Below are positions 6,022 to 59,295 of a stretch of 64,000 bases of DNA, piece by piece. This stretch comes from Kofleriaceae bacterium. GTDB taxonomy: Bacteria > Myxococcota_A > Polyangia > Haliangiales > Haliangiaceae. The stretch lies in the NCBI GenBank assembly GCA_041389925.1, contig JAWKQX010000006.1, forward strand, positions 343,837-407,836, in the 5' to 3' direction. Under the pieces are notes generated by a model. It was given only the letters and a program-made list of their open reading frames with translations, had not been told where the DNA came from and did not search any database. Positions within the stretch are counted from its first letter, which is position 1. Each line of letters opens with the position of its first letter. Position numbers and translations under genes: made by a program.

Positions 6022-7614
6022 TCACGTCGATGACCGACGCCGGGCGCCGAGGGCGAGGGCGAGGGCCCACAGGAGCAGGCCCGCGGGGCCGGTCCACGCG
6101 CCGAAGCGCACCGCCAACGTGGGCCCCGCGTCGAGCAGCGGGACCTCGTAGCGCAGCGCGCCGGGCGCGTCGATGGGGCCGCGCTCGCGGATCTCGCCGG
6201 TCGGCAGGATGAGCGCGGAGATGCCGGTGTTGGTGGCACGCACCTGCGCGCGGCGGGTCTCGACGGAGCGCACCGCGGCCATCGCCAGGTGCAGCTCCTT
6301 CTCCGCCCGGGACAGGAACCAGGAGTCGTTGGTGAGGTTGACCAGGGCCTGCGCGCCGGCGTCGACGGCGGCCGCGGCGTGGCCGGGGATGAGCGACTCG
6401 TAGCAGATGATCGGGCCAAGTCGGATCACGCGCGCCGGCGCCGCGAGCTTCAGATCGAGCACGCGGGGCGCGCCGCCGACGCCGAAGCGGGCGCGGCCCA
6501 GGAGCGGGATGTATTCGCCGAAGGGGATGAGATGAAACTTGTGGTACTCGGCGAGCTCGCCGTCGGCGTCGAGCAAGAGCGCGCTGTTGTACTCCACCTC
6601 TCCGCTGCGCCGGTAGCCGCCGAAGAGCAGCGGTACCCCGCGCTCGCGCACGAACGTCGTCAGCTCCTGATCGACGTCGTCGTCGAGCGAGCTGCGGTGG
6701 GCGCCGTACGCCAGCGGGTAGGCGGTCTCCGGCCACACCAGGAGCTGCGGCGCGACCGCGCCCTCGGGGAGCCCGGTGGTGAGCTGATCGGACAGCTCGC
6801 CGTAGGCCTTGAGCGTGTGGATGATCCCGTCGACGTCGCCGCGCGCCGCGATCTCCTTGGTGACGTTGCCGATGTTCGCCTGCACGACGCCGACGGACAA
6901 GGTCGGCGCGGCGCGCTGCGCGTCACCGACCTGCCGGCTGCGCACCGCGCCGTAGAGCAAGATCGCCGCCCACAGCGCGCCGGCGACGATCGCGCCGCCG
7001 AGGGCGCGGCGGCGGTGCAGGGCGACCGCGGCGACGACCTCTCCGACGAGCACGGCTGCGAACGTCAAGACGTAGAGGCCGCCCAGGTCGGCGACCTGGA
7101 TGACCCAGAGATCGCCGACGAACGCGACGCCCAGCGTGTCCTGGAAGAGCTTGGGCAACAGCCAGTCGAGGCCGGCGTAGAGCGCCGCGCTCGCGACCAG
7201 CGCGTGCGCGCCGGTGCGGTGGCGCCAGCGCCAGCGGACGACCGCCCAGATCGCGAGCTGAGGCTGCGCGATCGCCGCGTAGAGCGGGAACACCGCCCAG
7301 GAGGCGATCGGCGGCAGCTTGAAGAACGCCTCGACGGCGCCGGGCACCCAGTGGAAGACCAGCGCCGTGGTGAGCGCGCTGGTCGCGAGCCCAGCCAGGA
7401 GCGCGCGCGGCCAGCTCGTCGTCCGGTCGAGCAGCCACGCCAGCGGCGCCAGCGCGATCAGCGCGAACGGCGAGACGCCGAGGGGCGGCGCCGCCAGGGC
7501 GGTGAACCCGGCGGTCGCCAGCACCGCGAGCGCGGCGCGCCACCGCGGCGAGAGCCGGCCCCAGGCTGCCTGGGGCCCGACGCGTGGGGGTGGGCTCGCC
7601 GCGGCGGTCTTCAT
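6022..7614 (-). CDS. lnt: Apolipoprotein N-acyltransferase
   Basis: 530 aa with N-terminal polytopic TM segments and a C-terminal CN-hydrolase domain (ICYESLIPG... catalytic Cys context, WPETAYP). Confidence 0.8.
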   Translation of the reverse strand: MKTAAASPPPRVGPQAAWGRLSPRWRAALAVLATAGFTALAAPPLGVSPFALIALAPLAWLLDRTTSWPRALLAGLATSALTTALVFHWVPGAVEAFFKLPPIASWAVFPLYAAIAQPQLAIWAVVRWRWRHRTGAHALVASAALYAGLDWLLPKLFQDTLGVAFVGDLWVIQVADLGGLYVLTFAAVLVGEVVAAVALHRRRALGGAIVAGALWAAILLYGAVRSRQVGDAQRAAPTLSVGVVQANIGNVTKEIAARGDVDGIIHTLKAYGELSDQLTTGLPEGAVAPQLLVWPETAYPLAYGAHRSSLDDDVDQELTTFVRERGVPLLFGGYRRSGEVEYNSALLLDADGELAEYHKFHLIPFGEYIPLLGRARFGVGGAPRVLDLKLAAPARVIRLGPIICYESLIPGHAAAAVDAGAQALVNLTNDSWFLSRAEKELHLAMAAVRSVETRRAQVRATNTGISALILPTGEIRERGPIDAPGALRYEVPLLDAGPTLAVRFGAWTGPAGLLLWALALALGARRRSST

Positions 7615-17096: not shown

Positions 17097-18716
<1,620 letters not shown>

Positions 18717-37843: not shown

Positions 37844-40738
37844 ATGACGTGCTTTGGCCGAGGCGCCGAGCTGCGCCGCCTCCTCGGCCTGGCCGACGAT
37901 GACCCGGTGGCGGTCTTGGTCGGGCTCCCGGGCATCGGCAAGAGCGAGCTCGCGTATCGCGTCGAGGCCGAGCTGCTGGCCGCGGCGCCGCGACCGGTCG
38001 TGCACGTCAACGTCGCCCCGGGGCAAGCGCAGACGCTGTACCGCCAGCTCCTGGCGAAGATCGACGCGACGCTCGATGAGCCGTCACGCGGCGCGGCCTC
38101 GTCGGAGCTGGCGCTCGACGCGCTGGTCGAGCGGCTGGTCCGCTCGCCGCACCTCGTCCTGCTCGATGACGCGCACCACGCCCCGCTCGAGGCCGCCGCG
38201 CTGATCGATCGCTTGATGCGCCGCATCTCCGTCGCGGCCCGGCTCATCGTCGCGTCGCGCTCGATGTTGCCCATCGAGACGACGCCGATCGTGGTGCGGG
38301 TGGAGCCGCTGCCGCCCGACGCGGGCCACGCGATGGTGGAGCACTTCTCCGCGCGGCTCGGCGTGCAGGTGGAGGACGTGGGCGCGGTGGTCGCGCGCGG
38401 CGGCGGCAGCCCGCTCTTGCTGCGCCATCTCATCGCGGGCTCCTCGCCGGGCGAGCGCTCGCGCGATCCGCTGCACGCCACGATCACCGCGCTCGACGCA
38501 CCGGCCCAGCGCGCGCTGACCCAGCTCGCGGCGGTCGCTTCGTGCTCGCAGTCTCGTCCCGCGGCGGCGCGCCTGGTGTCGACCGAGCTCATCTTGCAGA
38601 CCCTCCACGAGCAGTGCCTGATCGACTTCGGTCCGGAGCGCGTCGTCGTGCACGATCTGGTGCGCGACGCGGTCCTCGCCAAGGCGGACCCCGAGCTGGT
38701 CCTCTCGAGCCGCGTGCACGCCGCGCGCCTCTTGTGGAACGAGTACCGCGCCGGCTGTGATCCGCGGGTCGCCATCGAGGCCATCTGCCTCGCGGCGTCG
38801 GTCGGCGATCTGGAGTCCGCGATGTCGCAGCTCCAGTCGGCGAGCCGCGCGATCACCGACGCCGGGCTCGATCATCTCATCCTGCCGAAGCTGGAGAAGC
38901 TGGCCGCGCGGGGCTCGCTCGACGCGTGCTTGCTGGCGGCGCGGATCTATGTTCGCGTCGCGCGGGTCCGGGACGCCGCGCGGATGCTCGATCACATCCT
39001 CCCGGCGGACCGCCTCAGCTACCAGGCGCTGATCGCGCGCGCCGCGCTGGCCGAGCGGCGCGGCGAGCTGACGGAGGCGACGCGCGGCTTCGCGCGCGCG
39101 TTGGACTCGGTCCCCGCCGGTCAGGCCCGGACGTGGCTGCGGCTGCGCCTGGTCACCGCGCACGCGCTGGCGGGGCGCTGCGACGAGGCCGCCGGCGCGC
39201 TGGCGGAGCTCGAGCCGGTCATCTTCGCCGCGCCCGATGACCCGGAGTCGCGACGGGACCTCGCCCGGTACTGGTGGTCGCATACGCTGGTCACCATGGC
39301 GCGCTACGAGTGGGAGCTCGCGCTCGCGTCGATCGATCACGGGATGCGCGCGGCGAGCAACGCCGGGGATCGCGAGCTCGGGTTCCGGTTTCGCCTCGCC
39401 GGGCTGCTCGCCGCGAGCGAGCTCGGCGCGACCCAGCAAGCGCGCACGTGGGCCGACGAGGTCGCGCGCGCGCGCGGCGGCGAGCCGGCCCACGAGCGGT
39501 TGAGCAACCTGTTCCTGGGGGTCGCGCATCTCGCCGAGGGTGCCGTCGATGAGATCGTGGCGCACCTGCGCCATGCCTACGACCTCCACGCGGCCGACCA
39601 CGACGTCCTGCTCTCCACCGTCGCCGCGTATCACCTGGCGCGCGCGATGCTGGTCGGCGGCTCGGCGGCGGCGGCGTGTGAGGTGCTCCGCGGCGTCGTG
39701 GACGTCGTCGTCGGTCAGGGCCTGGGAGCGCTCGTCGGTCCGGCCAAGGCGCTCTACGGCCGCGCGCTGGTCGCGGCGGGGCGCCTCGACGAGGCCCACG
39801 TCCTCGCCGCGGAGCTGGTCCGGTACGCGCACGCGCGGATGGTGGGCGAGGGCCAGGCCCTGCACGCGCACATCGCCGCGATGAGCGGAGACCTCTCCAC
39901 CGCGCGACGTCACCTGGCGTTGGCGTTGGAGGCGGTCGGCGATCGCGTCGCGGCGCGGGCGAGCCTGGTGATGGACCAGGCCCTCCTGGAGCTGTTCGGT
40001 GGCGATCCGGAGCGCGCCCGCGCGGCGGCGCTCGCGGCGCGCGACGCGAGCGCGTCTCGAGCTCATCCGCGCCTCCGCGGCAGCGTCCTCTATGTCCTGG
40101 CGGTGGCCGATCTCGCCGCGGGGCTCACCGACACCGCGCTCGAGGCGCTGGGCGAAGCCGAGGCCATCGCGGCCGAGTACGCGCTCGGGCAGCTCACGGA
40201 GTCCATCAAGCTCCTGCGCAACGCGACCGCCCTGGGAGACTCGATCTTCGATCGGGTGCCCCAGACCCACCGGCAGGGATATCTCGGCCTGCTCCGCGTC
40301 CTGGGCCTTCGATCCGGTACGCTGCTCGTGCTGAGCCGGCGGGGGCGGATCCACACCGGCGCGGCGCAGCTCGCGCAGGCGGCGCAGCACTTCGACATCG
40401 TCGTAGATCGCGTGGTCAACTCGCTCCGCGGTCCGAGCTCGACGGTCGAGGGGCGCGCCACCGCGGTGGCGATCTTGGTGGGGCTCGCCGAGAGCGAGGA
40501 GCCGGTCAGTCCGGAGCGGCTCTACCAGATCGTCTGGGGGGCTGGTGAGTATCACCCTATCCGACATAGAAATACTCTATATATTGCGCTCAATCGGACT
40601 CGAAAGGCCTTGAAAGACATTGGAGAGTCCCGCGAGGTGATCCTGCGCGGCAGCGACGGGTGGTACCTCTCGCCGGAGATCGACCTCGCGGTCGTCTATC
40701 GAGATCCGCGGGTCTCCACCGTTGCAGTGCCCATGTAA
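37844..40738 (+). CDS. STAND-type P-loop NTPase fused to helical/TPR-like region and a C-terminal OmpR/PhoB-type winged-helix DNA-binding domain
   Basis: Walker A VLVGLPGIGKSE and Walker B HLVLLDDAHH. Then ~600 aa of Ala/Leu-rich helical repeats. C-terminus LYQIVWGAGEYHPIRHRNTLYIALNRTRKALKDIGESREVILRGSDGWYLSPE resembles trans_reg_C. Confidence 0.6.
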   Translation: MTCFGRGAELRRLLGLADDDPVAVLVGLPGIGKSELAYRVEAELLAAAPRPVVHVNVAPGQAQTLYRQLLAKIDATLDEPSRGAASSELALDALVERLVRSPHLVLLDDAHHAPLEAAALIDRLMRRISVAARLIVASRSMLPIETTPIVVRVEPLPPDAGHAMVEHFSARLGVQVEDVGAVVARGGGSPLLLRHLIAGSSPGERSRDPLHATITALDAPAQRALTQLAAVASCSQSRPAAARLVSTELILQTLHEQCLIDFGPERVVVHDLVRDAVLAKADPELVLSSRVHAARLLWNEYRAGCDPRVAIEAICLAASVGDLESAMSQLQSASRAITDAGLDHLILPKLEKLAARGSLDACLLAARIYVRVARVRDAARMLDHILPADRLSYQALIARAALAERRGELTEATRGFARALDSVPAGQARTWLRLRLVTAHALAGRCDEAAGALAELEPVIFAAPDDPESRRDLARYWWSHTLVTMARYEWELALASIDHGMRAASNAGDRELGFRFRLAGLLAASELGATQQARTWADEVARARGGEPAHERLSNLFLGVAHLAEGAVDEIVAHLRHAYDLHAADHDVLLSTVAAYHLARAMLVGGSAAAACEVLRGVVDVVVGQGLGALVGPAKALYGRALVAAGRLDEAHVLAAELVRYAHARMVGEGQALHAHIAAMSGDLSTARRHLALALEAVGDRVAARASLVMDQALLELFGGDPERARAAALAARDASASRAHPRLRGSVLYVLAVADLAAGLTDTALEALGEAEAIAAEYALGQLTESIKLLRNATALGDSIFDRVPQTHRQGYLGLLRVLGLRSGTLLVLSRRGRIHTGAAQLAQAAQHFDIVVDRVVNSLRGPSSTVEGRATAVAILVGLAESEEPVSPERLYQIVWGAGEYHPIRHRNTLYIALNRTRKALKDIGESREVILRGSDGWYLSPEIDLAVVYRDPRVSTVAVPM

Positions 40739-40807
40739 AGACGAAGTATAGGTGTCGTTGCTGGTGGGTTGTTCCGGCCTGAGAAGAATGGTTCTCGGGA
40801 ACCGGAC

Positions 40808-43243
40808 ATGGAAGCTGGCACGACCATCGGCCGTTACGAAGTCCTCCGACTGCTGGCCGCAGGAGGGATGGGGGAGATCTACCTGGTGCGGCAGCACTCG
40901 ACGGTGCCGGGCTTCGCGTCCCTCGCCGTGATCAAGCTGCTGATCAACTCGCTGAGCATCAACCCCGCCTTCGTGCAGATGTTCCTGGAGGAGGCGCGGA
41001 TCGCCAGCCGCCTTCAGCACAAGAACATCGTACAGGTGCGCGACGTGGCTCAGCACGGCGGTCAGTACTACATGGTCATGGAGTACATCCCCGGGCACAA
41101 CCTGCGCGAGCTGCTCGGAGACACCTCCATCCTCGATCGCCCGCTGTTCTCGCCACGGCTCGGCGCGGAGCTGTTCGCGGACATCGCCAGCGCCCTCGGC
41201 GCCGCGCACGCGCAGCACCTCGTGCACCGCGACATCTCCCCGAACAACCTGATGATCAGCGATGAGGGCGTGCCCAAGCTGATCGATTTCGGCGTGGCGC
41301 GCGCGCAGAGCACGACGTCGTTGACCAAGCCGGGGACGCTCAAGGGCAAGTTCTCGTACATGGCGCCGGAGTACGTGCGCAGCGAGGCGTACGACCACCG
41401 CGTGGATCTGTTCTCGCTCGGCGTGGTGATGTGGGAGACGTTCACGCGTCGTCGGTTGTTTCGCGGGCCGAGCGCGGCCGAGCAGATCCACCAGATCCTC
41501 GAGGCGCCGATCCCGGCGCTCGACAAGGTGGTGCCGGACTTTCCACACGACCTCTCGACGATCGTGGCGGCCGCGCTCGAGCGAGATCCGCAGCGCCGGA
41601 TCTCCTCCGCGATGCTCCTCGCCGATAGCCTCGCCGAGATCGCGCGCGCGCTCCCGGTGGGGCGCGATCCGACGCTGCGCAAGTGGCTGGAGCGTCGCAT
41701 CCCCGATCGCTTGCGGGAGCGCGCCCAGACGGATCAGCTGCTGGCGACGCTGCCGCACGGCGCGCCGATCCCAGATTTCGGGACCGCGTTCCCCAACGCC
41801 GGCAGCGTGCCCAGCAGCTACGGCAACGCGCTCCATCACGACGCTCATGAGGAGGAGACGGGGCCACGTGAGGCCGTGGCGGCCGCGCCTCGCCGATCGA
41901 GCTCGCCGTCGTCGCTCCCGCCGGGGAGCGGGCTGGCGCCGGGGATGGGGCGCACGCCCGGGAGCACGCTCGCGCCGCGGATCGCGCCCGCGCCGGCCCT
42001 GGGGCCCGCGCCGAGCCACGCTCCGCTCACGGGGCCCGCGCCGGGGCAGGGGCCGTCGCCCGCGCCGGCGCCCGCGCCGCCGGCGCCCAGCGGCCGCGCG
42101 CGGTCGTTGCCCATCGTGCTGGGGTTCCTCGGCGGCATCCTGGCGATCGTGGTCGGGCTGCTGGTGCTGCGCGGCTCCTCGACGGACAAGGGGCCCTCGG
42201 TCGCGGCCGGCGCGGCTGAGGGCTCGCTCGCCGACGCGCATCGCCAGCTCGGCCTGCGCGCCATGGCCGGCGGTGATCTGGAGCAGGCGCGGCGGGAGTT
42301 CGCCGAGGCCGTGCGGCTGGGCGCGGGGGGAGACGTGACGCGGCTGCTCGAGCTGACGACGACCCAGGCCAAGCTGGCGGGGACCCCCGACGCGGCCGCC
42401 GCGGAGCCCGCGCCGGCCGAGGCCCGCGCGGCCGCGGCGGTCGCCGAGCCGGCGGCTCCGGACGAGGTCGTCGCGTCGGCGCCGAGCAGCGTCGCGCCGC
42501 CGGGCTCGGGGGGCTCGGACGGCTTGGACGGCTCGGACGGCTCGGAGGACGACGACGCGGCCGCGCCGCCGTCGCGCCCGTCGTCGCGCAGCGTGCGCTC
42601 GACGCCGACCCGCACCCGAGTCGCGCGCCAGCCGGACGTGAGCGTGAGCGTCGAGCCGGATGTCGCGCCGGCGCCCGTACCGGCGCCGGCGCCGGCGCCG
42701 CCCGCGATGGCGACGGTGACGGTCACGTCGGCGGTCCCCGACGCACAGGTGTTCGTCGATCAGCAGCTCGTCGGCACGGCGCCGCGCAAGCTCGAGCTGA
42801 CCCCGGAGGTCGAGCACGTGGTGGTCGTGAAGACGCGCGGCGGAGAGACGCTGCTCACGCGCCCCGTCCGGCTCGCGGCGGGCGCCACCACCTCCTTCCG
42901 CGTGGTGGCCAGGCCGGCGGCGGCGCCGCCGGCCGCCGCGCCGGCGGTGCCCGCGGTCAAGCCAGCGCGGACGCCGCGCGTCACCTCCGACGGCTCGGTC
43001 GACGCCGGCGCGCGGGTCGTGGCGGCGTGCAACGCGTGCCACGCGCGGACCGGCGCGGCGTCGTTCGGCGGTCGCCGCTATACGCGCGCGCAATGGGAGC
43101 GCTTCTTCGCGGGCGGTCTCCACGATCGATACGTCGGCATCGGCGACCAGATGGGCGCGGGAGAGCTGAGCGCGGCCCGCGCGTTCCTCCGCGCCAACGC
43201 GGCCGACAGCGCGGAACACCAAGGCGCGGGGATCCAGGAGTAG
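40808..43243 (+). CDS. Ser/Thr protein kinase with TM, Pro-rich linker, periplasmic PEGA domain and C-terminal mono-heme c-type (CXXCH) domain
   Basis: Kinase motifs GGMGEIYLV...VIK, HRDISPNN and DFG. TM is LPIVLGFLGGILAIVVGLLVL. PEGA-like segment VTVTSAVPDAQVFVDQQLVGTAPRKLELTPEVEHVVVVK. C-terminus VVAACNACHARTG.... Confidence 0.75.
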   Translation: MEAGTTIGRYEVLRLLAAGGMGEIYLVRQHSTVPGFASLAVIKLLINSLSINPAFVQMFLEEARIASRLQHKNIVQVRDVAQHGGQYYMVMEYIPGHNLRELLGDTSILDRPLFSPRLGAELFADIASALGAAHAQHLVHRDISPNNLMISDEGVPKLIDFGVARAQSTTSLTKPGTLKGKFSYMAPEYVRSEAYDHRVDLFSLGVVMWETFTRRRLFRGPSAAEQIHQILEAPIPALDKVVPDFPHDLSTIVAAALERDPQRRISSAMLLADSLAEIARALPVGRDPTLRKWLERRIPDRLRERAQTDQLLATLPHGAPIPDFGTAFPNAGSVPSSYGNALHHDAHEEETGPREAVAAAPRRSSSPSSLPPGSGLAPGMGRTPGSTLAPRIAPAPALGPAPSHAPLTGPAPGQGPSPAPAPAPPAPSGRARSLPIVLGFLGGILAIVVGLLVLRGSSTDKGPSVAAGAAEGSLADAHRQLGLRAMAGGDLEQARREFAEAVRLGAGGDVTRLLELTTTQAKLAGTPDAAAAEPAPAEARAAAAVAEPAAPDEVVASAPSSVAPPGSGGSDGLDGSDGSEDDDAAAPPSRPSSRSVRSTPTRTRVARQPDVSVSVEPDVAPAPVPAPAPAPPAMATVTVTSAVPDAQVFVDQQLVGTAPRKLELTPEVEHVVVVKTRGGETLLTRPVRLAAGATTSFRVVARPAAAPPAAAPAVPAVKPARTPRVTSDGSVDAGARVVAACNACHARTGAASFGGRRYTRAQWERFFAGGLHDRYVGIGDQMGAGELSAARAFLRANAADSAEHQGAGIQE

Positions 43244-43245
43244 AC

Positions 43246-44952
43246 ATGACTGCATCGTTCTCGACGTCGCGCACCGCGGCGTGCCTCAACGTTCGTTGGC
43301 TCTCGCTCGCGCTGCTCCTCGTCGGCGCGGGCCGCGCGGCCGCGCAGGGAGGTGCGCCCGGGCGGGAGGACGACGGCGCCGAGGAGCCCGCCGCGGGCGC
43401 CGCGGAGCCGAGCGACGCCGAGGATCGCGCGCCGTCGCTCGCGCTCCCGGCGCCGGCGGAGGATGAGGTCGCCGAAGATCGGCGTCGCCTCCGCGAGCTC
43501 GAGGATCGCCTCGACGAGGTGGAGAAGCACTCGACGCTGCAGCGCCTGGAGTGGTCCGGCGACTACCGGACCAGCCTGGCGCGCTACTGGTATCACGGCG
43601 CCTCGCCGGACAGTAACCCGTACGCCCGGCCCACCATCATCGACGGCCGCACCGACGAGCAGTGGATGCACCGCGCGCGCTTCATGATCAAGGCGCAGCC
43701 CTCGGAGAACCTCCGCTTTCGCGGTCGCGTCTCGGTGTTCAAGCGCTTCGGCACCAACACCTCGACCCCGTCGCCGCAGGACTTCTCACAGGGCCGCGTG
43801 CCCTCCGATACCACGCTGCGCATGGACCGCTTCTGGCTGGACTGGTTCCTCACCCCGAAGCTGGCGTTGTCCTTCGGCCGCATCTCGTACTCCGACGGCA
43901 GCCCCGCGGAGCTGCGCGAGAACCTGGAGAAGCCCGACGCCACCTGGGGCCTCACCATGGTCGACGGCGAGTACGAGACCTTCGACATCACCGCCCAGAT
44001 CTCCGACCACGTCCTGGTCCGCGGCTTCTACGCCTCCTGGGCGTTTCCTCGCAACGACGACCTTTTCTCCTCGAGCCTGTTCCTCGACAGCGAGGTCAAC
44101 AACCTGCGCATCCTCGGCGGCAACGCGGACATCTCCTACCCCGCGGCGAAGCTGTTCGCGCAGCTTGGCGCCTACGCGGTGCCGAAGTTCCGGCCGTTCG
44201 CGATCCCGCTGCCCAACCCGGCCTTCTACGCCGATCCGAACGCCAACCCGACCAACGCGCCGCCGCCGCTCGATGGCTCGCTGGTGTTTCCATCGTCGCT
44301 GCCGAGCTCGCTCGGCTCGTACGCGAACCTGAGCCTGATGGTGATGGTGCGAGATCTCGCCGGCGTGGACTTCTTCGCGGGTGGGGCGCTCGGCTTCCTC
44401 AACCCCAATGGCGAGGCCATCAAGTATCGAGGGTTCGCTCCCGATGGAAGCGAGCAGCCGATCTTGACGCTGGTGGGCGCCGATCAGGGGCTCTGGGAGT
44501 ACGACGCCCAGGGCAACCCCACCGTCTTCCGCAACGAACCCGCGCCGAGCCGCACCACGTTCGTGTACCTGGGTGGGCGCTGGACCCTGCCGGTCGGCGG
44601 GCCCTACGCGCCGAAGGTCGGGCTCGAGTACAACTACGGATCTCGATACTCGATCTCGTTTAGCCAGTCGACGGATCTGTTGACCAACAAGCTGGCGACG
44701 CGCGGCAGCGCGTGGGAGACCTACGCCATCCAGCCCATCTCCGAGCGCGCGTTCCTGCGGCTCGATCTGCAGTACATCGACGCGAAGTACACCAGCGGCA
44801 TGCCCGGCAACATCGCGGGCGGGACCGGCTTCTTCGGTAGCCCGGACAGCCCGCTGGCGCCGATGCAGGCGCACGGCGGCACGTCGCCGCCGGTGTCGCC
44901 CTCGGGCCAGAACCTCTACGCGCTGTCCGCGACGATCCACGTCAACTTCTAG
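43246..44952 (+). CDS. Secreted/outer-membrane beta-rich protein (putative porin-like) with N-terminal coiled coil
   Basis: Starts 3 bp after the kinase stop. Signal MTASFSTSRTAACLNVRWLSLALLLVGAGRAAAQ, then coiled coil EDRRRLRELEDRLDEVEK, and a C-terminal aromatic residue (…IHVNF). Confidence 0.5.
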   Translation: MTASFSTSRTAACLNVRWLSLALLLVGAGRAAAQGGAPGREDDGAEEPAAGAAEPSDAEDRAPSLALPAPAEDEVAEDRRRLRELEDRLDEVEKHSTLQRLEWSGDYRTSLARYWYHGASPDSNPYARPTIIDGRTDEQWMHRARFMIKAQPSENLRFRGRVSVFKRFGTNTSTPSPQDFSQGRVPSDTTLRMDRFWLDWFLTPKLALSFGRISYSDGSPAELRENLEKPDATWGLTMVDGEYETFDITAQISDHVLVRGFYASWAFPRNDDLFSSSLFLDSEVNNLRILGGNADISYPAAKLFAQLGAYAVPKFRPFAIPLPNPAFYADPNANPTNAPPPLDGSLVFPSSLPSSLGSYANLSLMVMVRDLAGVDFFAGGALGFLNPNGEAIKYRGFAPDGSEQPILTLVGADQGLWEYDAQGNPTVFRNEPAPSRTTFVYLGGRWTLPVGGPYAPKVGLEYNYGSRYSISFSQSTDLLTNKLATRGSAWETYAIQPISERAFLRLDLQYIDAKYTSGMPGNIAGGTGFFGSPDSPLAPMQAHGGTSPPVSPSGQNLYALSATIHVNF

Positions 44953-45317
44953 ATCCGACGACATCCGACGACGCGTGGCTCGGTGGCGCGGCGGCGCGCG
45001 CGAGGCGCGCTCGGTCGCGGTCACGACCTCCGTGCGCTTGCGCTTTCGGGAGCGAGGCGTTCACACGATCGCGCGGTCGCCATCGCCGGTGGCGAACCTG
45101 GCCAACGTGTGTGGATGCTCCGTCCCGACCGCGGTCACCGACGCGTTGATGCAAGGCGTTGTGGTCCGTCCAAACGAGCCGCCCACCGCGTGTTCGTAGG
45201 TTCTCCATCCCTACAATTCTGGGCCGCCCACTCACGTGCTTGGACTTCATGGAATTCCCGATCTCACTTGCGCGTTCGGCCGCGCGGTGGATGGTCCACC
45301 AGAAGTTAGGAAGTCCA

Positions 45318-45929
45318 ATGAAGAAGCAAAAAGTAGGCACGAAGTTGTTGGCTGTGTTCTTGGCGATCGCGATGGTCGCAGCTGGATGCGCCGCGGAGGG
45401 GCCGCGTCCCAGCACCGAGTTGCCCCGTCAGACGGGGGAGCAGATGTTTCGCGGTCTGGTCTTCGGTGAGGGCGCGGTCGCCGCGCAGGTTCCGGAGATC
45501 TGGGGTAGCTATCAAGCGCCCGAGCTCGACGCGAAGGATCAGGCGCGGCGCGAGGAGATGATCGCGCAGCTCATCGCCGATCTGCGCGAGGCCGACGCGA
45601 CCTTCCTGGATCGCTATGGCGCCGCGATGCAGAGTGGGGATCACCTGTTGATCGAGAAGACGCTCGATGAGAGCGCCGTGCTCGTTCGGCAGGCGGTGGA
45701 GAAGCGCCAGGGCCCGCTGTCGGACAGCAAGGTCGTGAAGGATCCGGGCGGCACCTGTCTCGCCGTGGCACTCGTCGTCGTCGGCGCCCTCGTGGTCGCG
45801 GTGGTCGGCTACGCGGTCTACAACGAGAACGTGTTCTGGGGCGGTGGCGACGAGTTCGGATGGTCCGGGTCGCAGCTCGGTCGCGACCAGGCGGTCGACC
45901 TCATCGCGACGAGGCTCGTCACGCACTAG
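45318..45929 (+). CDS. Small lipoprotein with C-terminal hydrophobic helix; candidate SdpC-like toxin/bacteriocin precursor (assignment by synteny)
   Basis: RBS AGGAAG. Lipobox MVAAGC. C-terminus GGTCLAVALVVVGALVVAVVGYAVYNENVFWGGGDEFGW. It is followed by a strong hairpin and then SdpA/SdpB-family-like genes. Confidence 0.35.
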   Translation: MKKQKVGTKLLAVFLAIAMVAAGCAAEGPRPSTELPRQTGEQMFRGLVFGEGAVAAQVPEIWGSYQAPELDAKDQARREEMIAQLIADLREADATFLDRYGAAMQSGDHLLIEKTLDESAVLVRQAVEKRQGPLSDSKVVKDPGGTCLAVALVVVGALVVAVVGYAVYNENVFWGGGDEFGWSGSQLGRDQAVDLIATRLVTH

Positions 45930-45968
45930 GTCCCACCGAGTGACGTGAACCTCTAGCTCGCCGGTCGT

Positions 45969-45993
45969 GGGGCGTCCGCGCGGCGGACGCCCC
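45969..45993 (+). terminator. Perfect 11-bp stem hairpin GGGGCGTCCGC-GCG-GCGGACGCCCC (intrinsic terminator/attenuator candidate)
   Basis: The inverted repeat is visible 40 bp after the stop at 45929. The T-tract after it is weak (ctatttccctct). Confidence 0.5.
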
Positions 45994-46043
45994 ACGGTTG
46001 GCCCCTATTTCCCTCTGGTCCCTGGCAAGGCTGCGTGATCTCC

Positions 46044-46670
46044 ATGGCTACCACTGACCCCACCGAAGCATCGGCCCCTCCTCTCCCCTCGACTCTTCCC
46101 CCAACGATGGTCGTGTCCGCGGTCGTCGCCCCGTCGGCGCGCGCGCTCGGCGCGCTGACGCTGGCGCTGGCGGCGGCCTGGCTCGTCGTCATCGGCTACG
46201 CGGCCTACCCCGCGCTGCCGCAGAGCCCGGTGCGCCTCCCGCTGGCGGAGCGTGCGCACAGCTACCTCTGGGCGCCGCAAGGGTGGAGCTTCTTCACGCG
46301 CGACCCGCGCGGAGATCGGCAGTTCGTCTATCACAAGGGCGCCTCGGGCTGGGATCCGGTGCTGTTGGCGCCGCACGGGCGGCTGACCAACCTCGCCGGC
46401 CTGCGCCGTCGCTCGCGCGCGCAGGGCGTGGAGATGGCGCTCCTCCTCGAGAATGTCCCGCCCACCGCATGGCGGACGTGCGACGCCCCGGTGCAGGTTT
46501 GCCTGAGCCAGCCCAGCACGCCGCGCGAGGTCCCCAACGTCTCGCCCGATCCGACGATGTGCGGCGACGTCGCGGTGGTGCTGCAGCGGCCATTGCCGTG
46601 GGCGTGGGCGCGCGCTTCGCGCCCGATCACCATGCCGTCCCGCGTGGTGTCGCTGAGGGTGTCATGCTGA
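46044..46670 (+). CDS. SdpA-family (antimicrobial-peptide system) protein-like
   Basis: N-terminal TM (ALGALTLALAAAWLVVIGYAAY), then SYLWAPQGWSFFTRDPRGDRQFVYHKGASGWDP. This resembles the SdpA family as I recall it (assignment from memory). The stop overlaps the next gene's start. Confidence 0.45.
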   Translation: MATTDPTEASAPPLPSTLPPTMVVSAVVAPSARALGALTLALAAAWLVVIGYAAYPALPQSPVRLPLAERAHSYLWAPQGWSFFTRDPRGDRQFVYHKGASGWDPVLLAPHGRLTNLAGLRRRSRAQGVEMALLLENVPPTAWRTCDAPVQVCLSQPSTPREVPNVSPDPTMCGDVAVVLQRPLPWAWARASRPITMPSRVVSLRVSC

Positions 46671-47695
46671 GCGCCCTCGGGAGCAAGGTCCGCGCGGCGA
46701 TCGCGCAGCCGCTGCACTCCAACGTCCTCGGCGTGGCACGCACGGTGATCGCGCTGGGCACGTTGGGCACGCTGCTGTTCAGCCGCGCCAGCGACATCCT
46801 CCGGCCCGCCGTGGGGTTCAGCGAGTCGCCGCACTGCGCGAGCGTGGGCAAGGCCGGGCTGTTCTGCCTCACCGGCGCGGATCATCTGGAGCTGGGGAGG
46901 TGGCTCGCGGTGGCGGCGCTGCTGCTGGTCGCCAGCGGCTGGCGGCCGCGGCTGACCGGCCTGTTGCACTGGTACGTGGTGACCAGCTTGTTCTCCTCCG
47001 GCACGCTGGTCGACGGTGGCGATCAAGCCGCGGTGGTGCTGACGTTCTTGCTCGTGCCGATCACGCTCGCGGATCCGCGACGCTGGCACTGGAGCGCCGC
47101 GCCGCCGGTCTCGCTGGAGCGGACGACCGCGCGGCGCGCGCTGGGCGCGAGCGCGCTGCGCCTGTTGGCGCTGACCTGCGCGTGGGCGCTCCGGCTGCAG
47201 ATGGCCGGGATCTACTTTCAGGCGTGCGTCTCCAAGCTCAAGGTGCCGGAGTGGCAGGACGGCACCGCGGTGTACTACTGGTTCACCGACCCGTGGTTCG
47301 GCATTCCGGAGCCGGTGCGCTCGCTGGTCATGCCGCTGCTCACCAATGGCATGGTCGTCACCGCGATCACCTGGGGTGCGCTGGCGCTGGAGATCTTTCT
47401 CTTCTCCGGGCTCGTGGCGACGCGCCGGACCCGGAGGGCGCTCCTGGTGCTCGGCATTTCGTTCCACGCGATGATCGCGCTCATCCACGGGCTGCTGAGC
47501 TTCGCGCTGGTGATGTGGGGTGGCCTGATCCTGTTTCTGCGGCCGCTGGATCAGGAGTTCGCGGCGGTCCGGCGCCTCACCGAGCGGCTCGGCGACGGCG
47601 TGCGGCTCGTCGGGGCGCGCGTGAGGCGCCGCGCCGGCAACGAGGGGGAGGCCTTGCCCACGCGCGGCGCGCGCGGCGCGGTCGTGCGCTCGTGA
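46664..47695 (+). CDS. HTTM-domain (vitamin-K-dependent gamma-carboxylase-like) membrane protein, SdpB-family-like
   Basis: 343 aa, polytopic, with an N-terminal HTTM-like segment (…VARTVIALGTLGTLLFSRASDILRP…). ATGCTGA overlap with the SdpA-like stop. Confidence 0.5.
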   Translation: MLSALGSKVRAAIAQPLHSNVLGVARTVIALGTLGTLLFSRASDILRPAVGFSESPHCASVGKAGLFCLTGADHLELGRWLAVAALLLVASGWRPRLTGLLHWYVVTSLFSSGTLVDGGDQAAVVLTFLLVPITLADPRRWHWSAAPPVSLERTTARRALGASALRLLALTCAWALRLQMAGIYFQACVSKLKVPEWQDGTAVYYWFTDPWFGIPEPVRSLVMPLLTNGMVVTAITWGALALEIFLFSGLVATRRTRRALLVLGISFHAMIALIHGLLSFALVMWGGLILFLRPLDQEFAAVRRLTERLGDGVRLVGARVRRRAGNEGEALPTRGARGAVVRS

Positions 47696-57258: not shown

Positions 57259-59295
57259 TTGACGGACCGAGGCCATAGCGATGACGCGACGCCCCTCGCG
57301 ACGCCCACGGAGGGCGAGCCGCGCGGCGCGTCGAGGTCGTTCCGCGTCGTGGAGGCGGGCGATCGGCTGGGGCGCTTCGAGCTGCTCGAGGCGATCGGTG
57401 AGGGAGGCATGGCGTCCGTGTTTCGCGCGCGCGATCCGGAGCTGCGGCGCGACGTGGCGATCAAGGTGCTGTTCCCGCACCTGAGCCGTCGCGAGGAGGT
57501 GGTGCGGCGGTTCCAGCGCGAGGCGCGCGCGGCGGCGCGGCTGCACCACCCCGCGATCTTGCAGACCTTCGATGTCGGCGGCGGGGAGGACGGCGAGCCG
57601 CCGCACATCATCATGGAGCTGGTCCGCGGCGCCTCGCTGCACGAGCACCTCGCCGCGCACCCGCCGATGCTCGCCGAGGTCGTCGCGTGCCTCGGGGTGG
57701 TGATCGCCGAGGCGCTGGCGGTCGCACACGACGCGGGGGTGATCCACCGCGACCTCAAGCCGGGCAACCTGCTGGTGTCGCAGGACGGGCGCGTGCTCCT
57801 CGCGGATTTCGGGGTGGCGCACGTGGAGCGCGATGAGTCGCTGGCGACGCGCACGGGCGCGGTGCTCGGCACGCCCGCGTACATGAGTCCGGAGCAGGCC
57901 TCCGGCGAGGACATCGACGGGCGGAGCGATCTGTACTCGCTGGGCGCCACGCTCTATCACGTCGCCACCGGCGCGCCGCCGTACAGCGGCTCGGCGATGA
58001 AGGTGATGTCGTCGCTCGCCACGCCGGGGGCGCTGGTGCCGCCCGCGCAGCGACGCGCGGCGATCGGTCGCCCTCTATCGGACGCGATCCTGAGGCTGAT
58101 GGCGCACGATCCGGCCGCGCGGCCGGCGACGGCGCGCGAGGCCGCAGAGCTCTTGCGGCCGCTGACCGCGCCGCTCGGGGAGCCGGCGGCGGCGCTGGAG
58201 GCGTACTGCCGCGAGCCGGCGAGCTACGTGGAGGCGGCGACGCCGCGCGTCGTGACCCGCCTCCTCGATGACGCGCGCGCGGCGCAGCGGGCCGGGCGGC
58301 TCGCCGGCGCGCTGGCGCTGGTGGACCGCGCCGCGCAGCTCGCGCCTGAGGACGACGCGGTCGCCACGCTGGTCCGCGACGTCACCGCGCGGCGCGGCCG
58401 CGTCGTCGGGGTGCGTCGCGCGGCCGCGGTCGCGCTCGTCGCGGTCGCCGCGTTTGGCGCCGTCGCGGCGATCGTCCTCGGCGGGCGCGCGCCGGGCGGC
58501 ACGGCGACGCCGAGCGAGGCGGCCTCGGCGGCGGGGGCGGTCGACGCCGCGCTCGGCCTCGTCGACGCCAGCCCGGCCTCGGCGAGCGCCGCGCCCGGCG
58601 ACGCGGCGCCCGCGGACGCCCGCCTCAGCGACGCCGAGCGCGCCGAGGTCGCCGAGCGCGCCGAGGTCGCCGAGCGCGCCGAGCTCCATGACGCCCAGCC
58701 CGCGCGAGCGCGCCCCTCTACGCCGGACGCCGCGCGGCGCCGCCCGCCGCCCGAGGTCGTCGGGGCGCGCCCCGAGGTCGTCGCGGACGCCGCGCCATCC
58801 CCCTCCGCGAGCGCGACCCCGAGCGAGCCCGCGACGTCGCCGCCGGTCGAGCCCGCGGGCGCCGCGGAGCCGCGGCGCGGCGCGGCCATCTTCGCGATGG
58901 ACGCCTGGTGCGAGCTCAGCGTCGACGGCGTCCGCCGGGGCCGCGCCGATCGAACCGCGGCGATCCCGCTCGCCGAAGGGCCGCACGCCGCGGTGTGCAC
59001 GCAAGGCCCGGGGCTCGGCGAGTGGCGCGGTGCGTTCGAGGTTCGCGCGGGCGAGACTCGCGAGGTCCGCGGCGCGCTGCGGCGGCAGGTGCGGGTCACC
59101 GTCTCGGTGTCTGGCACCTCGGTCACCATCGCAGGCAAGACGATCGACAACCGCGCCCAGGTGTCGCTCGACAACGGTCGCCACCGCGTCACGATCCTGC
59201 GCGGGGCGAAGGACATCGGCGGCGGCTGGGTCTCGATTCCGCGGGTGGCGAGCTGCACGCTCCGCGACCAGCCGGTGCTGGACTGCTATCCATGA
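57259..59295 (+). CDS. Ser/Thr protein kinase with TM segment and C-terminal extracytoplasmic beta-rich domain
   Basis: Motifs GEGGMASVF...AIK, HRDLKPGN and DFG. TM is AAVALVAVAAFGAVAAIVL. Contains an (AERAEV)n repeat. Start uncertain (TTG 57259 or downstream GTG). Confidence 0.7.
   Translation: MTDRGHSDDATPLATPTEGEPRGASRSFRVVEAGDRLGRFELLEAIGEGGMASVFRARDPELRRDVAIKVLFPHLSRREEVVRRFQREARAAARLHHPAILQTFDVGGGEDGEPPHIIMELVRGASLHEHLAAHPPMLAEVVACLGVVIAEALAVAHDAGVIHRDLKPGNLLVSQDGRVLLADFGVAHVERDESLATRTGAVLGTPAYMSPEQASGEDIDGRSDLYSLGATLYHVATGAPPYSGSAMKVMSSLATPGALVPPAQRRAAIGRPLSDAILRLMAHDPAARPATAREAAELLRPLTAPLGEPAAALEAYCREPASYVEAATPRVVTRLLDDARAAQRAGRLAGALALVDRAAQLAPEDDAVATLVRDVTARRGRVVGVRRAAAVALVAVAAFGAVAAIVLGGRAPGGTATPSEAASAAGAVDAALGLVDASPASASAAPGDAAPADARLSDAERAEVAERAEVAERAELHDAQPARARPSTPDAARRRPPPEVVGARPEVVADAAPSPSASATPSEPATSPPVEPAGAAEPRRGAAIFAMDAWCELSVDGVRRGRADRTAAIPLAEGPHAAVCTQGPGLGEWRGAFEVRAGETREVRGALRRQVRVTVSVSGTSVTIAGKTIDNRAQVSLDNGRHRVTILRGAKDIGGGWVSIPRVASCTLRDQPVLDCYP

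Follow-up and report, generated by a model that had tools for sequence, protein, structure and literature searches.

A STAND-type regulator of Polyangia with a C-terminal OmpR/PhoB winged helix and a candidate operator before a receptor kinase–porin operon

How a protein that joins a STAND (signal transduction ATPase with numerous domains) nucleotide-binding module to an OmpR-type DNA-binding domain might work, and which genes it might control, is the question raised by one gene in the 64-kb window analyzed here, which is the whole 64,000-nucleotide stretch from a Kofleriaceae bacterium (Haliangiales, Polyangia, Myxococcota). The gene occupies positions 37844-40738 (+) of the window and encodes a protein of 964 amino acids, referred to below as the regulator. 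An earlier note on this DNA had described a protein of about this length with a STAND NTPase, a tetratricopeptide repeat (TPR)-like body and a C-terminal OmpR-type winged helix-turn-helix (wHTH), and had left its role between a transcription factor and a defence-type sensor. The open reading frame (ORF) and its codon-position GC content bore out the gene, and Pfam, profile searches and structure models bore out the succession of the three parts. The best explanation, to which we assign a probability of about 0.62, is that the regulator is a cytoplasmic ATP-dependent transcription factor on the plan of MalT, with an OmpR/PhoB output domain, and that it controls the kinase-porin operon located directly downstream.

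The N-terminal part of the regulator (residues 4-129) matched the Pfam families AAA_22 with 41.5 bits (cut-off 27) and nSTAND6 (PF25201) with 29.5 bits (cut-off 27.7), a membership that is silent on function, and the match to NB-ARC was sub-threshold at 14.1 bits. The scan of the regulator against NCBIfam gave nothing meaningful. The Walker A (VLVGLPGIGKSE) and Walker B (VLLDDAHH) strings quoted in the earlier note were found in the translation, and both motifs were invariant or nearly so in an alignment of 18 relatives with 27-100% identity (Table 1), so that the loss of the Walker motifs in orthologues, which that note had named as a refutation, was not borne out. In this alignment, R139 of a sensor-1-like ASR and both G188 and P190 of the GxP motif were invariant, and H270 and R274 of an MHD-like VHD in the winged-helix arm were kept at ≥90%. 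Everything by which a STAND protein is recognized, namely Walker A, Walker B, the sensor-1 arginine, GxP and the histidine motif in the winged-helix arm, was thus retained, and these intact motifs argue, at the level of sequence, for a functional nucleotide switch.

In the full-length AlphaFold2 (AF2) model (predicted local distance difference test score, pLDDT, 82.9; predicted template modelling score, pTM, 0.66), the α/β NTPase was followed by a small winged-helix arm, about 26 helices (residues 283-795), a linker and the wHTH, with a short helix and a β-hairpin forming the linker at residues 805-845. The family profile, compared with the PDB, matched PH0952 (6mfv) with an E-value of 2.9e-19 over profile positions 11-300, MalT domain III (1hz4) with 3.1e-10, the NB-ARC domains of plant NLR proteins with about 1e-6 and PhoB with 7.6e-4, and TPR proteins were matched as well; AfsR was not among these profile-to-PDB sequence matches of the regulator family. 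The whole-chain Foldseek search of the PDB also returned 6mfv as the top match, and the remaining matches were generic TPR proteins. In addition, BTAD gave no Pfam match at E ≤ 1 in the regulator and none at E ≤ 0.01 in seven relatives. With no BTAD, a sub-threshold NB-ARC and no AfsR among the sequence matches, the label “reverse SARP” given in the earlier note fits only loosely, PH0952 and MalT being the nearest solved relatives of the NTPase and TPR parts. The Pfam scan of the regulator found no receiver (Response_reg), FHA or other phospho-binding, GerE or enzymatic effector domain. The statement that the protein has no receiver therefore stands, and the further statement that it has no other sensor left the TPR region out of account, the part that serves STAND proteins as their sensor.

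The C-terminus is an OmpR-type winged helix on three independent lines of evidence. First, paralogues of 27-31% identity, aligned with the regulator end to end, scored 29-47 bits for Trans_reg_C at the C-terminus (cut-off 26.2). Second, a search of all PDB sequences with a profile of the C-terminal 160 residues gave 24 matches at E < 0.1, all of them DNA-binding domains of the OmpR/PhoB family, with PhoB (1gxp) matched across the whole domain at E 8.8e-6. Third, the AF2 model of the isolated domain (pLDDT 87.3; pTM 0.80) had the β-sheet, α1, α2, α3 and wing in this order, and the top 50 Foldseek matches of this model in the PDB were all wHTH domains of ToxR, CadC, OmpR, PhoB, CovR, SaeR, RstA, EmbR, AfsR and similar proteins, with target-normalized template modelling scores of 0.5-0.74 for the matches to isolated DNA-binding domains. 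The match of the C-terminus to trans_reg_C, on which the earlier note had staked its reading, was obtained through these three routes, and the signature that it had quoted (LYQIVWG...NTLYIALNRTRKAL...GWYL) was present in the translation. The residues W898, G899, Y903, H904, P905, R909, N910, Y913, R918, R920, G939, and W940 of the domain were invariant. That the regulator is a DNA-binding transcription factor is, in our assessment, very probable.

A candidate operator for this domain was located at the 3′ end of the regulator gene (Table 1). When the regulator 3′ ends and the following spacers of four loci were aligned, GTAAAGACGAAGTAnAGG was invariant amid otherwise unalignable DNA. Its two hexamers, GTAAAG and GTATAG in the window, start 11 bp from each other, and its general form is GTAmAG-N5-GTAmAG. 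The 18-mer was unchanged whether or not its TAA served as the stop codon, and in the locus L001 it lies 16 nt past the stop. The scan of the 64-kb window with a position weight matrix (PWM) found a single site of 32.4 bits, with 8.6 bits for the next best and a maximum of 14.4 bits over 20 shuffles. The loci orthologous to that of the window (L001/L011, L003, L004, L009, L010, and L012-L017, with L099 found later) carry regulators of 35-66% identity, and in 12 of 12 of them the repeat stands 49-95 nt upstream of the kinase ATG, in the orientation of the kinase. In L014, where the order is kinase-porin-regulator, the repeat is upstream of the kinase though the regulator is not, and in L015, where the kinase is divergent and upstream, the repeat is on the opposite strand with it. 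Because the repeat moves together with the kinase gene in these two loci, the element belongs to the kinase promoter region.

The shorter core A[AC]AGA[CT]GA[ATC]GTA[AC][AG] had about 50 matches in 1.05 Mb of family loci, as compared with about 0.04 expected by chance (a hand estimate from base composition), and these matches were confined to the regions flanking regulator and kinase genes. Three positions were occupied by the core: from -12 to +156 nt relative to the regulator stop, including beside paralogues of only 27-31% identity, with the consensus AmAGAyGAwGTAAGAa at this position; upstream of the regulator gene, at distances ranging between about 40 nt and a few hundred nt; and upstream of a second kinase copy. 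A coding constraint on the regulator C-terminus was ruled out as the origin of the repeat by this range of distances from the stop and by its detachment from the regulator 3′ end in L014 and L015. Inverted copies of the repeat 40-70 nt upstream of the regulator start in L001 (7936-7953, -), L009 (6944-6961, -), and L012 (~6916-6933, -) suggest autoregulation or control of a divergent gene. No operator copy was found upstream of the regulator in the window, where the best PWM score in 37573-37860 was -6.3 bits, and the AT-rich region that the earlier note had placed there proved unremarkable, since 37573-37843 has 67.5% GC, ordinary for an intergenic stretch against the window mean of 72% (standard deviation 6.5% for 100-nt windows). 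The scan of metagenome contigs for the 17-mer GTAAAGACGAAGTAMAG returned at least 120 matches, mostly in low-GC or gut contigs and in numbers consistent with chance, and is not usable as a test of motif specificity; among the matches listed, only L099 was a true orthologous locus, with the order regulator-motif-kinase-porin. The repeat is likely the operator of the regulator.

The presence of the motif was also compared with the recognition helix, whose region was near-invariant in the family (EYHPLRHRNTLY-A-NR-RK) with one variable position, N917 in the regulator, aligned with Arg200 of PhoB (the numbering being derived from the profile-to-PDB alignment). Beside genes with an Asn-type helix (A[LI]NR, window included), the motif was found in about 25 of 26 loci, and beside those with a Lys-type helix (AVKR and similar) in 1 of about 25. 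No shared motif was detected downstream of the Lys-type paralogues by k-mer counting.

These observations bear on an alternative in which the regulator acts at distant targets and the repeat is the site of another regulator, an alternative sigma-factor element or a signal in the kinase mRNA. This alternative would accommodate the second conserved block that follows the repeat in the clade of the window and the folding of the spacer RNA, which forms a hairpin and, over 40725-40815, folds better than shuffled controls (z -3.05); moreover, the Lys-type members have no shared local motif, so local autoregulatory sites are not universal. However, the motif accompanies family genes over a range of 27-66% protein identity and is all but absent from the rest of the 1.05 Mb, its presence tracks the recognition-helix residue, and its half-sites, in direct orientation, have the spacing of 10-11 bp that would be expected if OmpR/PhoB/SARP domains bound there; protomers of such domains sit side by side on direct repeats with an 11-bp register (PMC10936776). 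Besides, no Rfam family was matched (nothing relevant was found in 36000-46000), and on inspection of the sequence the two-block spacing of sigma-54 or extracytoplasmic function (ECF) sigma factors did not fit. We regard this alternative as improbable. The second block itself could serve as a -10-like element (AAGAAT, 40785-40790) or as a further binding site, and the region 40774-40806 could hold a second regulator site or a 5′-untranslated-region structure. In L003 and L010 the second block lies within a GTTCnnnGAAC palindrome.

With the repeat read as the regulator's operator, the direction of control can be approached from the paralogue promoters. A TAnnnT hexamer was found at a fixed distance of 35-37 nt after the repeat in 15 of 21 paralogue sites, with a near-match at the same distance in most of the others. 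If TAnnnT is the -10 element, the paralogue repeat is centred near -41.5 and overlaps the -35 position, where no -35 consensus was seen; such a geometry is that of activator-dependent promoters. On account of this promoter geometry, activation was preferred to repression, and we rate the chance that the regulator activates as about even.

The gene following the repeat encodes a kinase with a cytoplasmic kinase domain and one predicted transmembrane segment; it has a PEGA-like region in the periplasm, and its C-terminal domain carries a CxxCH motif (CNACH). The CxxCH was kept in every kinase orthologue, and the C-terminal 110 amino acids (42911-43240) were 60-84% identical across the orthologues. 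The only family match of this domain was Cytochrome_CBB3, which at 15.7 bits was below the cut-off. The periplasmic CxxCH domain suggests redox or small-ligand sensing. A Hanks kinase bearing haem c would be an unusual sensor. Since the porin gene starts 2 nt past the kinase stop, the kinase and porin genes form an operon. The porin was 65-87% identical in the orthologous loci, and its family DUF3373 appears in TCDB under 1.B.62, which groups putative pore-forming proteins of the outer membrane (PMC4827864). The neighbours named in the earlier note, a GDSL/CBM20 pair on one side and a kinase/heme/porin operon on the other, were present, the kinase carrying the CNACH motif.

The orthologous kinase adjoined the regulator in 12 of 12 orthologous loci, with 50-83% identity in the kinase domain, and the porin was present in most of them. 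L001 and L012 contain a tandem duplication of the kinase, and each copy has kept an operator-like repeat. The linkage of regulator and kinase survives gene rearrangement, as seen in L014 and L015. The kinase-porin operon, whose relation to the regulator the earlier note had missed, is the conserved partner of the regulator and probably its target.

The same linkage would fit a second alternative, in which the regulator is mainly a substrate or adaptor of the adjacent kinase, like AfsR with AfsK or EmbR with PknH, so that phosphorylation is decisive and the TPR region docks the kinase or other proteins. The maintenance of the linkage through rearrangements and the operator-like repeat at each tandem kinase copy agree with this alternative, and AfsR offers a precedent: ATP stimulates this STAND-wHTH activator, and AfsK, a kinase encoded nearby, phosphorylates it (PMC10936776). 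In AfsR, however, the effect of phosphorylation was marginal and ATP was the stronger activator (PMC10936776). In the regulator, all of the NTPase motifs are invariant or nearly so, and no FHA or other phospho-binding domain was found by Pfam. Because it overlaps the explanation favoured here, this alternative is inseparable from it by computation; as a separate account it is about as improbable as that of a repeat with another owner. That the kinase phosphorylates the regulator at all is a tentative proposal, somewhat doubtful in our view.

In the favoured explanation, the regulator would rest in an ADP-bound state, in which the TPR region and the nucleotide-binding oligomerization domain (NOD) keep it monomeric. 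The binding of a ligand or protein to the TPR region, or phosphorylation by the adjacent kinase in the manner of AfsK and AfsR, would trigger nucleotide exchange (ATP binding) and oligomerization, and via oligomerization the wHTH domains would come together as a head-to-tail pair on the two units of the repeat (40735-40752). Their binding would switch on the kinase-porin operon, with the outcome that an envelope- or redox-sensing receptor kinase would feed back on its own expression. A wider proposal is that a Ser/Thr-kinase analogue of two-component systems exists across Polyangia, in which a haem-c transmembrane kinase has a dedicated STAND-OmpR-wHTH partner that would read both phosphorylation and the TPR/ATP switch and bind AmAGAyGAwGTAAr to drive the kinase operon, many paralogues being insulated by one recognition-helix residue (Asn vs Lys, Thr, or Gly); this is a speculative picture, and rather unlikely to hold as a whole.

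Several observations weigh against control of the kinase-porin operon by the regulator as described. Trans_reg_C in this particular protein, at residues 870-933, scored 17.3 bits (E 0.005), below the Pfam cut-off. The correlation of motif and helix is confounded by shared ancestry, since clades share both traits; it is partly phylogenetic, yet it is as would be expected if the wHTH reads the repeat. Three Ser/Thr kinases are present in the 64 kb, two more Hanks-type kinase domains at ~17130-17972 (+) and ~57349-58182 (+) having 33-37% identity to the operon kinase. With kinase genes packed this densely in the genome, adjacency in the paralogues would by itself be weak evidence, and it is the orthologous kinase on which the case is built. 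No terminator was predicted between regulator and kinase, and some transcription of the kinase may be read-through. In the clade of the window no convincing -35/-10 pair was found, the sigma-70 consensus scan of 37300-41100 gave no matches, and the distance of the repeat from the candidate -10 exceeds that in the paralogues by about one helical turn.

The other role raised in the earlier note, a defence-type STAND sensor that acts on DNA, is very improbable; in this reading the protein would be Avs-like and would recognize an invader protein through its TPR region. In its favour, anti-phage STAND systems often contain nSTAND-type NTPases and TPR sensors, multicellular myxobacteria show an expansion of the family, and genes for a leucine-rich-repeat protein and a major-vault-protein-like protein lie nearby. 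Against it, PADLOC gave 0 matches, the wHTH is the sole output domain with no enzymatic effector, the synteny shared with signalling genes of housekeeping type persists across Polyangia (35-66% identity), a conserved cis-element stands at the neighbouring promoter, and the recognition helix is invariant rather than diversifying. Of the two roles, the transcription factor was strengthened by the conserved operator-like direct repeat beside the gene, and the defence sensor found no support.

Table 1. Positions in the window of the regulator's parts, the DNA elements beside it and the adjacent genes.
Feature	Positions	Strand	Basis or remark
CBM20 gene	35970-36752		Upstream of regulator
GDSL hydrolase gene	36721-37572		Upstream of regulator
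Walker A / P-loop, G27-S34 (GLPGIGKS; VLVGLPGIGKSE)	37922..37945	+	G27, G30, G32, K33 invariant in 18 relatives
Walker B, L104-D109 (LVLLDD), then H111	38153..38170	+	D108, H111 invariant in 18 relatives
TPR-like all-helical sensor region, residues ~283-795	38690..40228	+	~26 consecutive AF2 helices, mostly pLDDT 90-97; MalT domain III match
OmpR/PhoB-type winged-helix domain, residues ~846-955	40379..40708	+	Paralogue Pfam, profile-to-PDB, fold search
Recognition-helix codons, residues 905-925 (...HRNTLYIALNRTRKAL...), including N917	40556..40618	+	Helix in AF2 model
Candidate operator GTAAAGACGAAGTATAGG (direct repeat GTAAAGACGAAGTAnAGG)	40735..40752	+	Overlaps regulator stop; ends 56 nt upstream of kinase ATG
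Second conserved block GAGAAGAATGG (TGAACAATGG in relatives; TGA(A/G)nAAT(G))	40781..40791	+	28-30 nt after repeat
Transmembrane Hanks-type Ser/Thr kinase, 811 aa	40808..43243	+	Pkinase 148 bits; start from orthologue alignment
DUF3373 outer-membrane β-barrel, putative porin	43246..44952	+	DUF3373 105 bits; signal peptide; C-terminal Phe

The open frame of the regulator spans 37634-40738 (+) and ends with a TAA stop at 40736-40738. A longer ORF from the ATG at 37634 was ruled out, as the stretch 37634-37843 had codon-position GC of 0.63/0.67/0.67 without coding signal. Counted from the ATG at 37844, the first 100 codons had 0.82/0.47/0.92, a pattern of coding type, and the start was placed at 37844 because this signal begins there and not at 37634. 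The database protein P0001 is identical to the regulator and carries the NCBI name 'MAG: AAA family ATPase [Kofleriaceae bacterium]'. At the other end of the gene, the 69-nt spacer between regulator and kinase (40739-40807) stood out as low in GC, with 55%.

Another low-GC spot that stood out lies inside the wHTH coding region, where the 100-nt window 40540-40640 had 48.5% GC, below the 1st percentile. The GC content at third codon positions (GC3) was 0.32 in 19 codons of the α2-α3 loop and recognition helix (40556-40620, EYHP...NRTRK), as compared with 0.86 in the rest of the last 110 codons; GC3 of the whole regulator gene was 0.91. A similar dip (0.42-0.63) was present in the four closest orthologues (L003, L004, L009, and L010), in which the amino acids were identical and the synonymous sites differed, and it was absent from more distant orthologues and from paralogues. 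An internal promoter, translation pacing or the avoidance of mRNA structure could cause the dip.

The genes upstream of the regulator vary: the window has GDSL and CBM20, and other loci have VIT1 and DUF7873 or DoxX-like genes. A 249-residue leucine-rich-repeat protein (LRR_4, 100.9 bits) is encoded at 35102-35851 (-), just upstream of the CBM20/GDSL pair, and about 4.5 kb upstream of the regulator, an 839-residue protein similar to the major vault protein at 30741-33260 (-) (vault shoulder domain, 84.9 bits; vault repeat, 37.4 bits). The porin gene is followed by an unannotated ORF of 256 codons (45159-45929) and by a gene for a 470-residue HTTM protein at 46283-47695 (+), whose HTTM domain is vitamin-K-dependent carboxylase-like (35.8 bits). 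Downstream of the regulator gene in paralogous clades, a conserved 510-residue protein and then a kinase, or a kinase directly, were often found. This protein of about 510 residues, without Pfam match, stands directly downstream of many Asn-type paralogues (L005, 11182-12714; L006, 11174-12706; about eight more), often with a Ser/Thr kinase next; its identity between loci was 62-76%, with 45% in L037, and it is absent from the window.

The family to which the regulator belongs is large and nearly confined to Polyangia. At E ≤ 1e-30, a hidden Markov model (HMM) built from 18 members matched at least 344 cluster representatives (clustered at 50% identity), many of which aligned in one stretch from about position 5 to about position 970. 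The scan of one genome per species gave 69 loci, all in Polyangia except one, a weak N-terminal match in a metagenome-assembled genome (MAG) of Chloroflexia. These loci come from Kofleriaceae and further members of Haliangiales, from Polyangiales, from Sandaracinus and from two cultured strains, Polyangium jinanense SDU13 and Polyangium sp. 15x6. One genome often contains several paralogues of the family, and most paralogues also match nSTAND6. Some relatives are auto-annotated in JGI records as 'OmpR family regulator/TPR repeat protein'. The STAND-TPR-wHTH combination is thus already in the databases, without characterization within the searchable literature, in which our search found no description of nSTAND6, of a STAND architecture with Trans_reg_C/OmpR, or of myxobacterial examples.

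The candidate operator of 18 bp, the target operon and the candidate specificity residue are concrete hypotheses which the comparative data provide for an uncultured lineage. They also offer a possible way into how myxobacteria connect their very large repertoires of Ser/Thr kinases to transcription; to our knowledge, very few connections from kinase to transcription are known, AfsK/AfsR and PknH/EmbR in actinobacteria being among them.

The STAND transcription factors known so far include MalT and the large ATP-binding regulators of the LuxR family (LAL), with a LuxR helix-turn-helix (HTH), AfsR and the antibiotic regulatory proteins of Streptomyces (SARPs), with an N-terminal OmpR wHTH and BTAD, and GutR. 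Among the solved structures, PH0952 of Pyrococcus horikoshii (6mfv), a MalT-like STAND protein with a TPR sensor, is the best relative of the NTPase and winged-helix arm, but its match spans the NOD and TPR regions only, with nothing aligned to the C-terminal OmpR-type domain. For that domain, the OmpR/PhoB response regulators have the same fold and the signature VWG...R.R, and by analogy with them binding to tandem direct repeats is expected. Unlike them, the regulator has no receiver domain or phospho-acceptor Asp, so that control would come from a STAND/TPR module of about 800 residues, and its α2-α3 loop (EYHPLRHRN), invariant in the family, is three residues longer than that of PhoB.

With AfsR and the large SARPs of Streptomyces, the regulator shares an OmpR-type wHTH, a STAND NOD and TPR in one polypeptide and a Ser/Thr kinase gene nearby; AfsR (8hvr) and EmbR were among the fold matches of its wHTH. 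The operators of those proteins are direct repeats close to the -35 region with an 11-bp register (PMC10936776), a register that the candidate operator also has. It differs from them in that the wHTH comes last (residues ~846-955 of 964), no BTAD was detected, NB-ARC is sub-threshold, and the phylum is another one. With MalT and the LAL regulators, it shares the order of its parts: the STAND NTPase, with its winged-helix arm, is N-terminal, the sensor is TPR-like (SUPR), and the DNA-binding domain is C-terminal; in addition, its paralogues give weak TPR_MalT matches and the family profile matches MalT domain III. In MalT, inducer and ATP drive multimerization, which is followed by binding to repeated boxes, and the same would be expected here by analogy. 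The differences are that the DNA-binding domain is an OmpR/PhoB wHTH in the regulator and a LuxR/GerE HTH in MalT and LAL, that the partner is a receptor Ser/Thr kinase with a porin and not the proteins of the maltose system, and that the family is nearly restricted to Polyangia. Since MalT and the LAL regulators already carry their DNA-binding domain at the C-terminus, it is not the order of the domains that is new but the type of the DNA-binding domain. A MalT-like design with an OmpR-type output domain describes the regulator better than a rearranged SARP, and the locus thereby adds a further combination, a MalT-like chassis with a C-terminal OmpR-type output, represented by a family of at least hundreds of sequence clusters.

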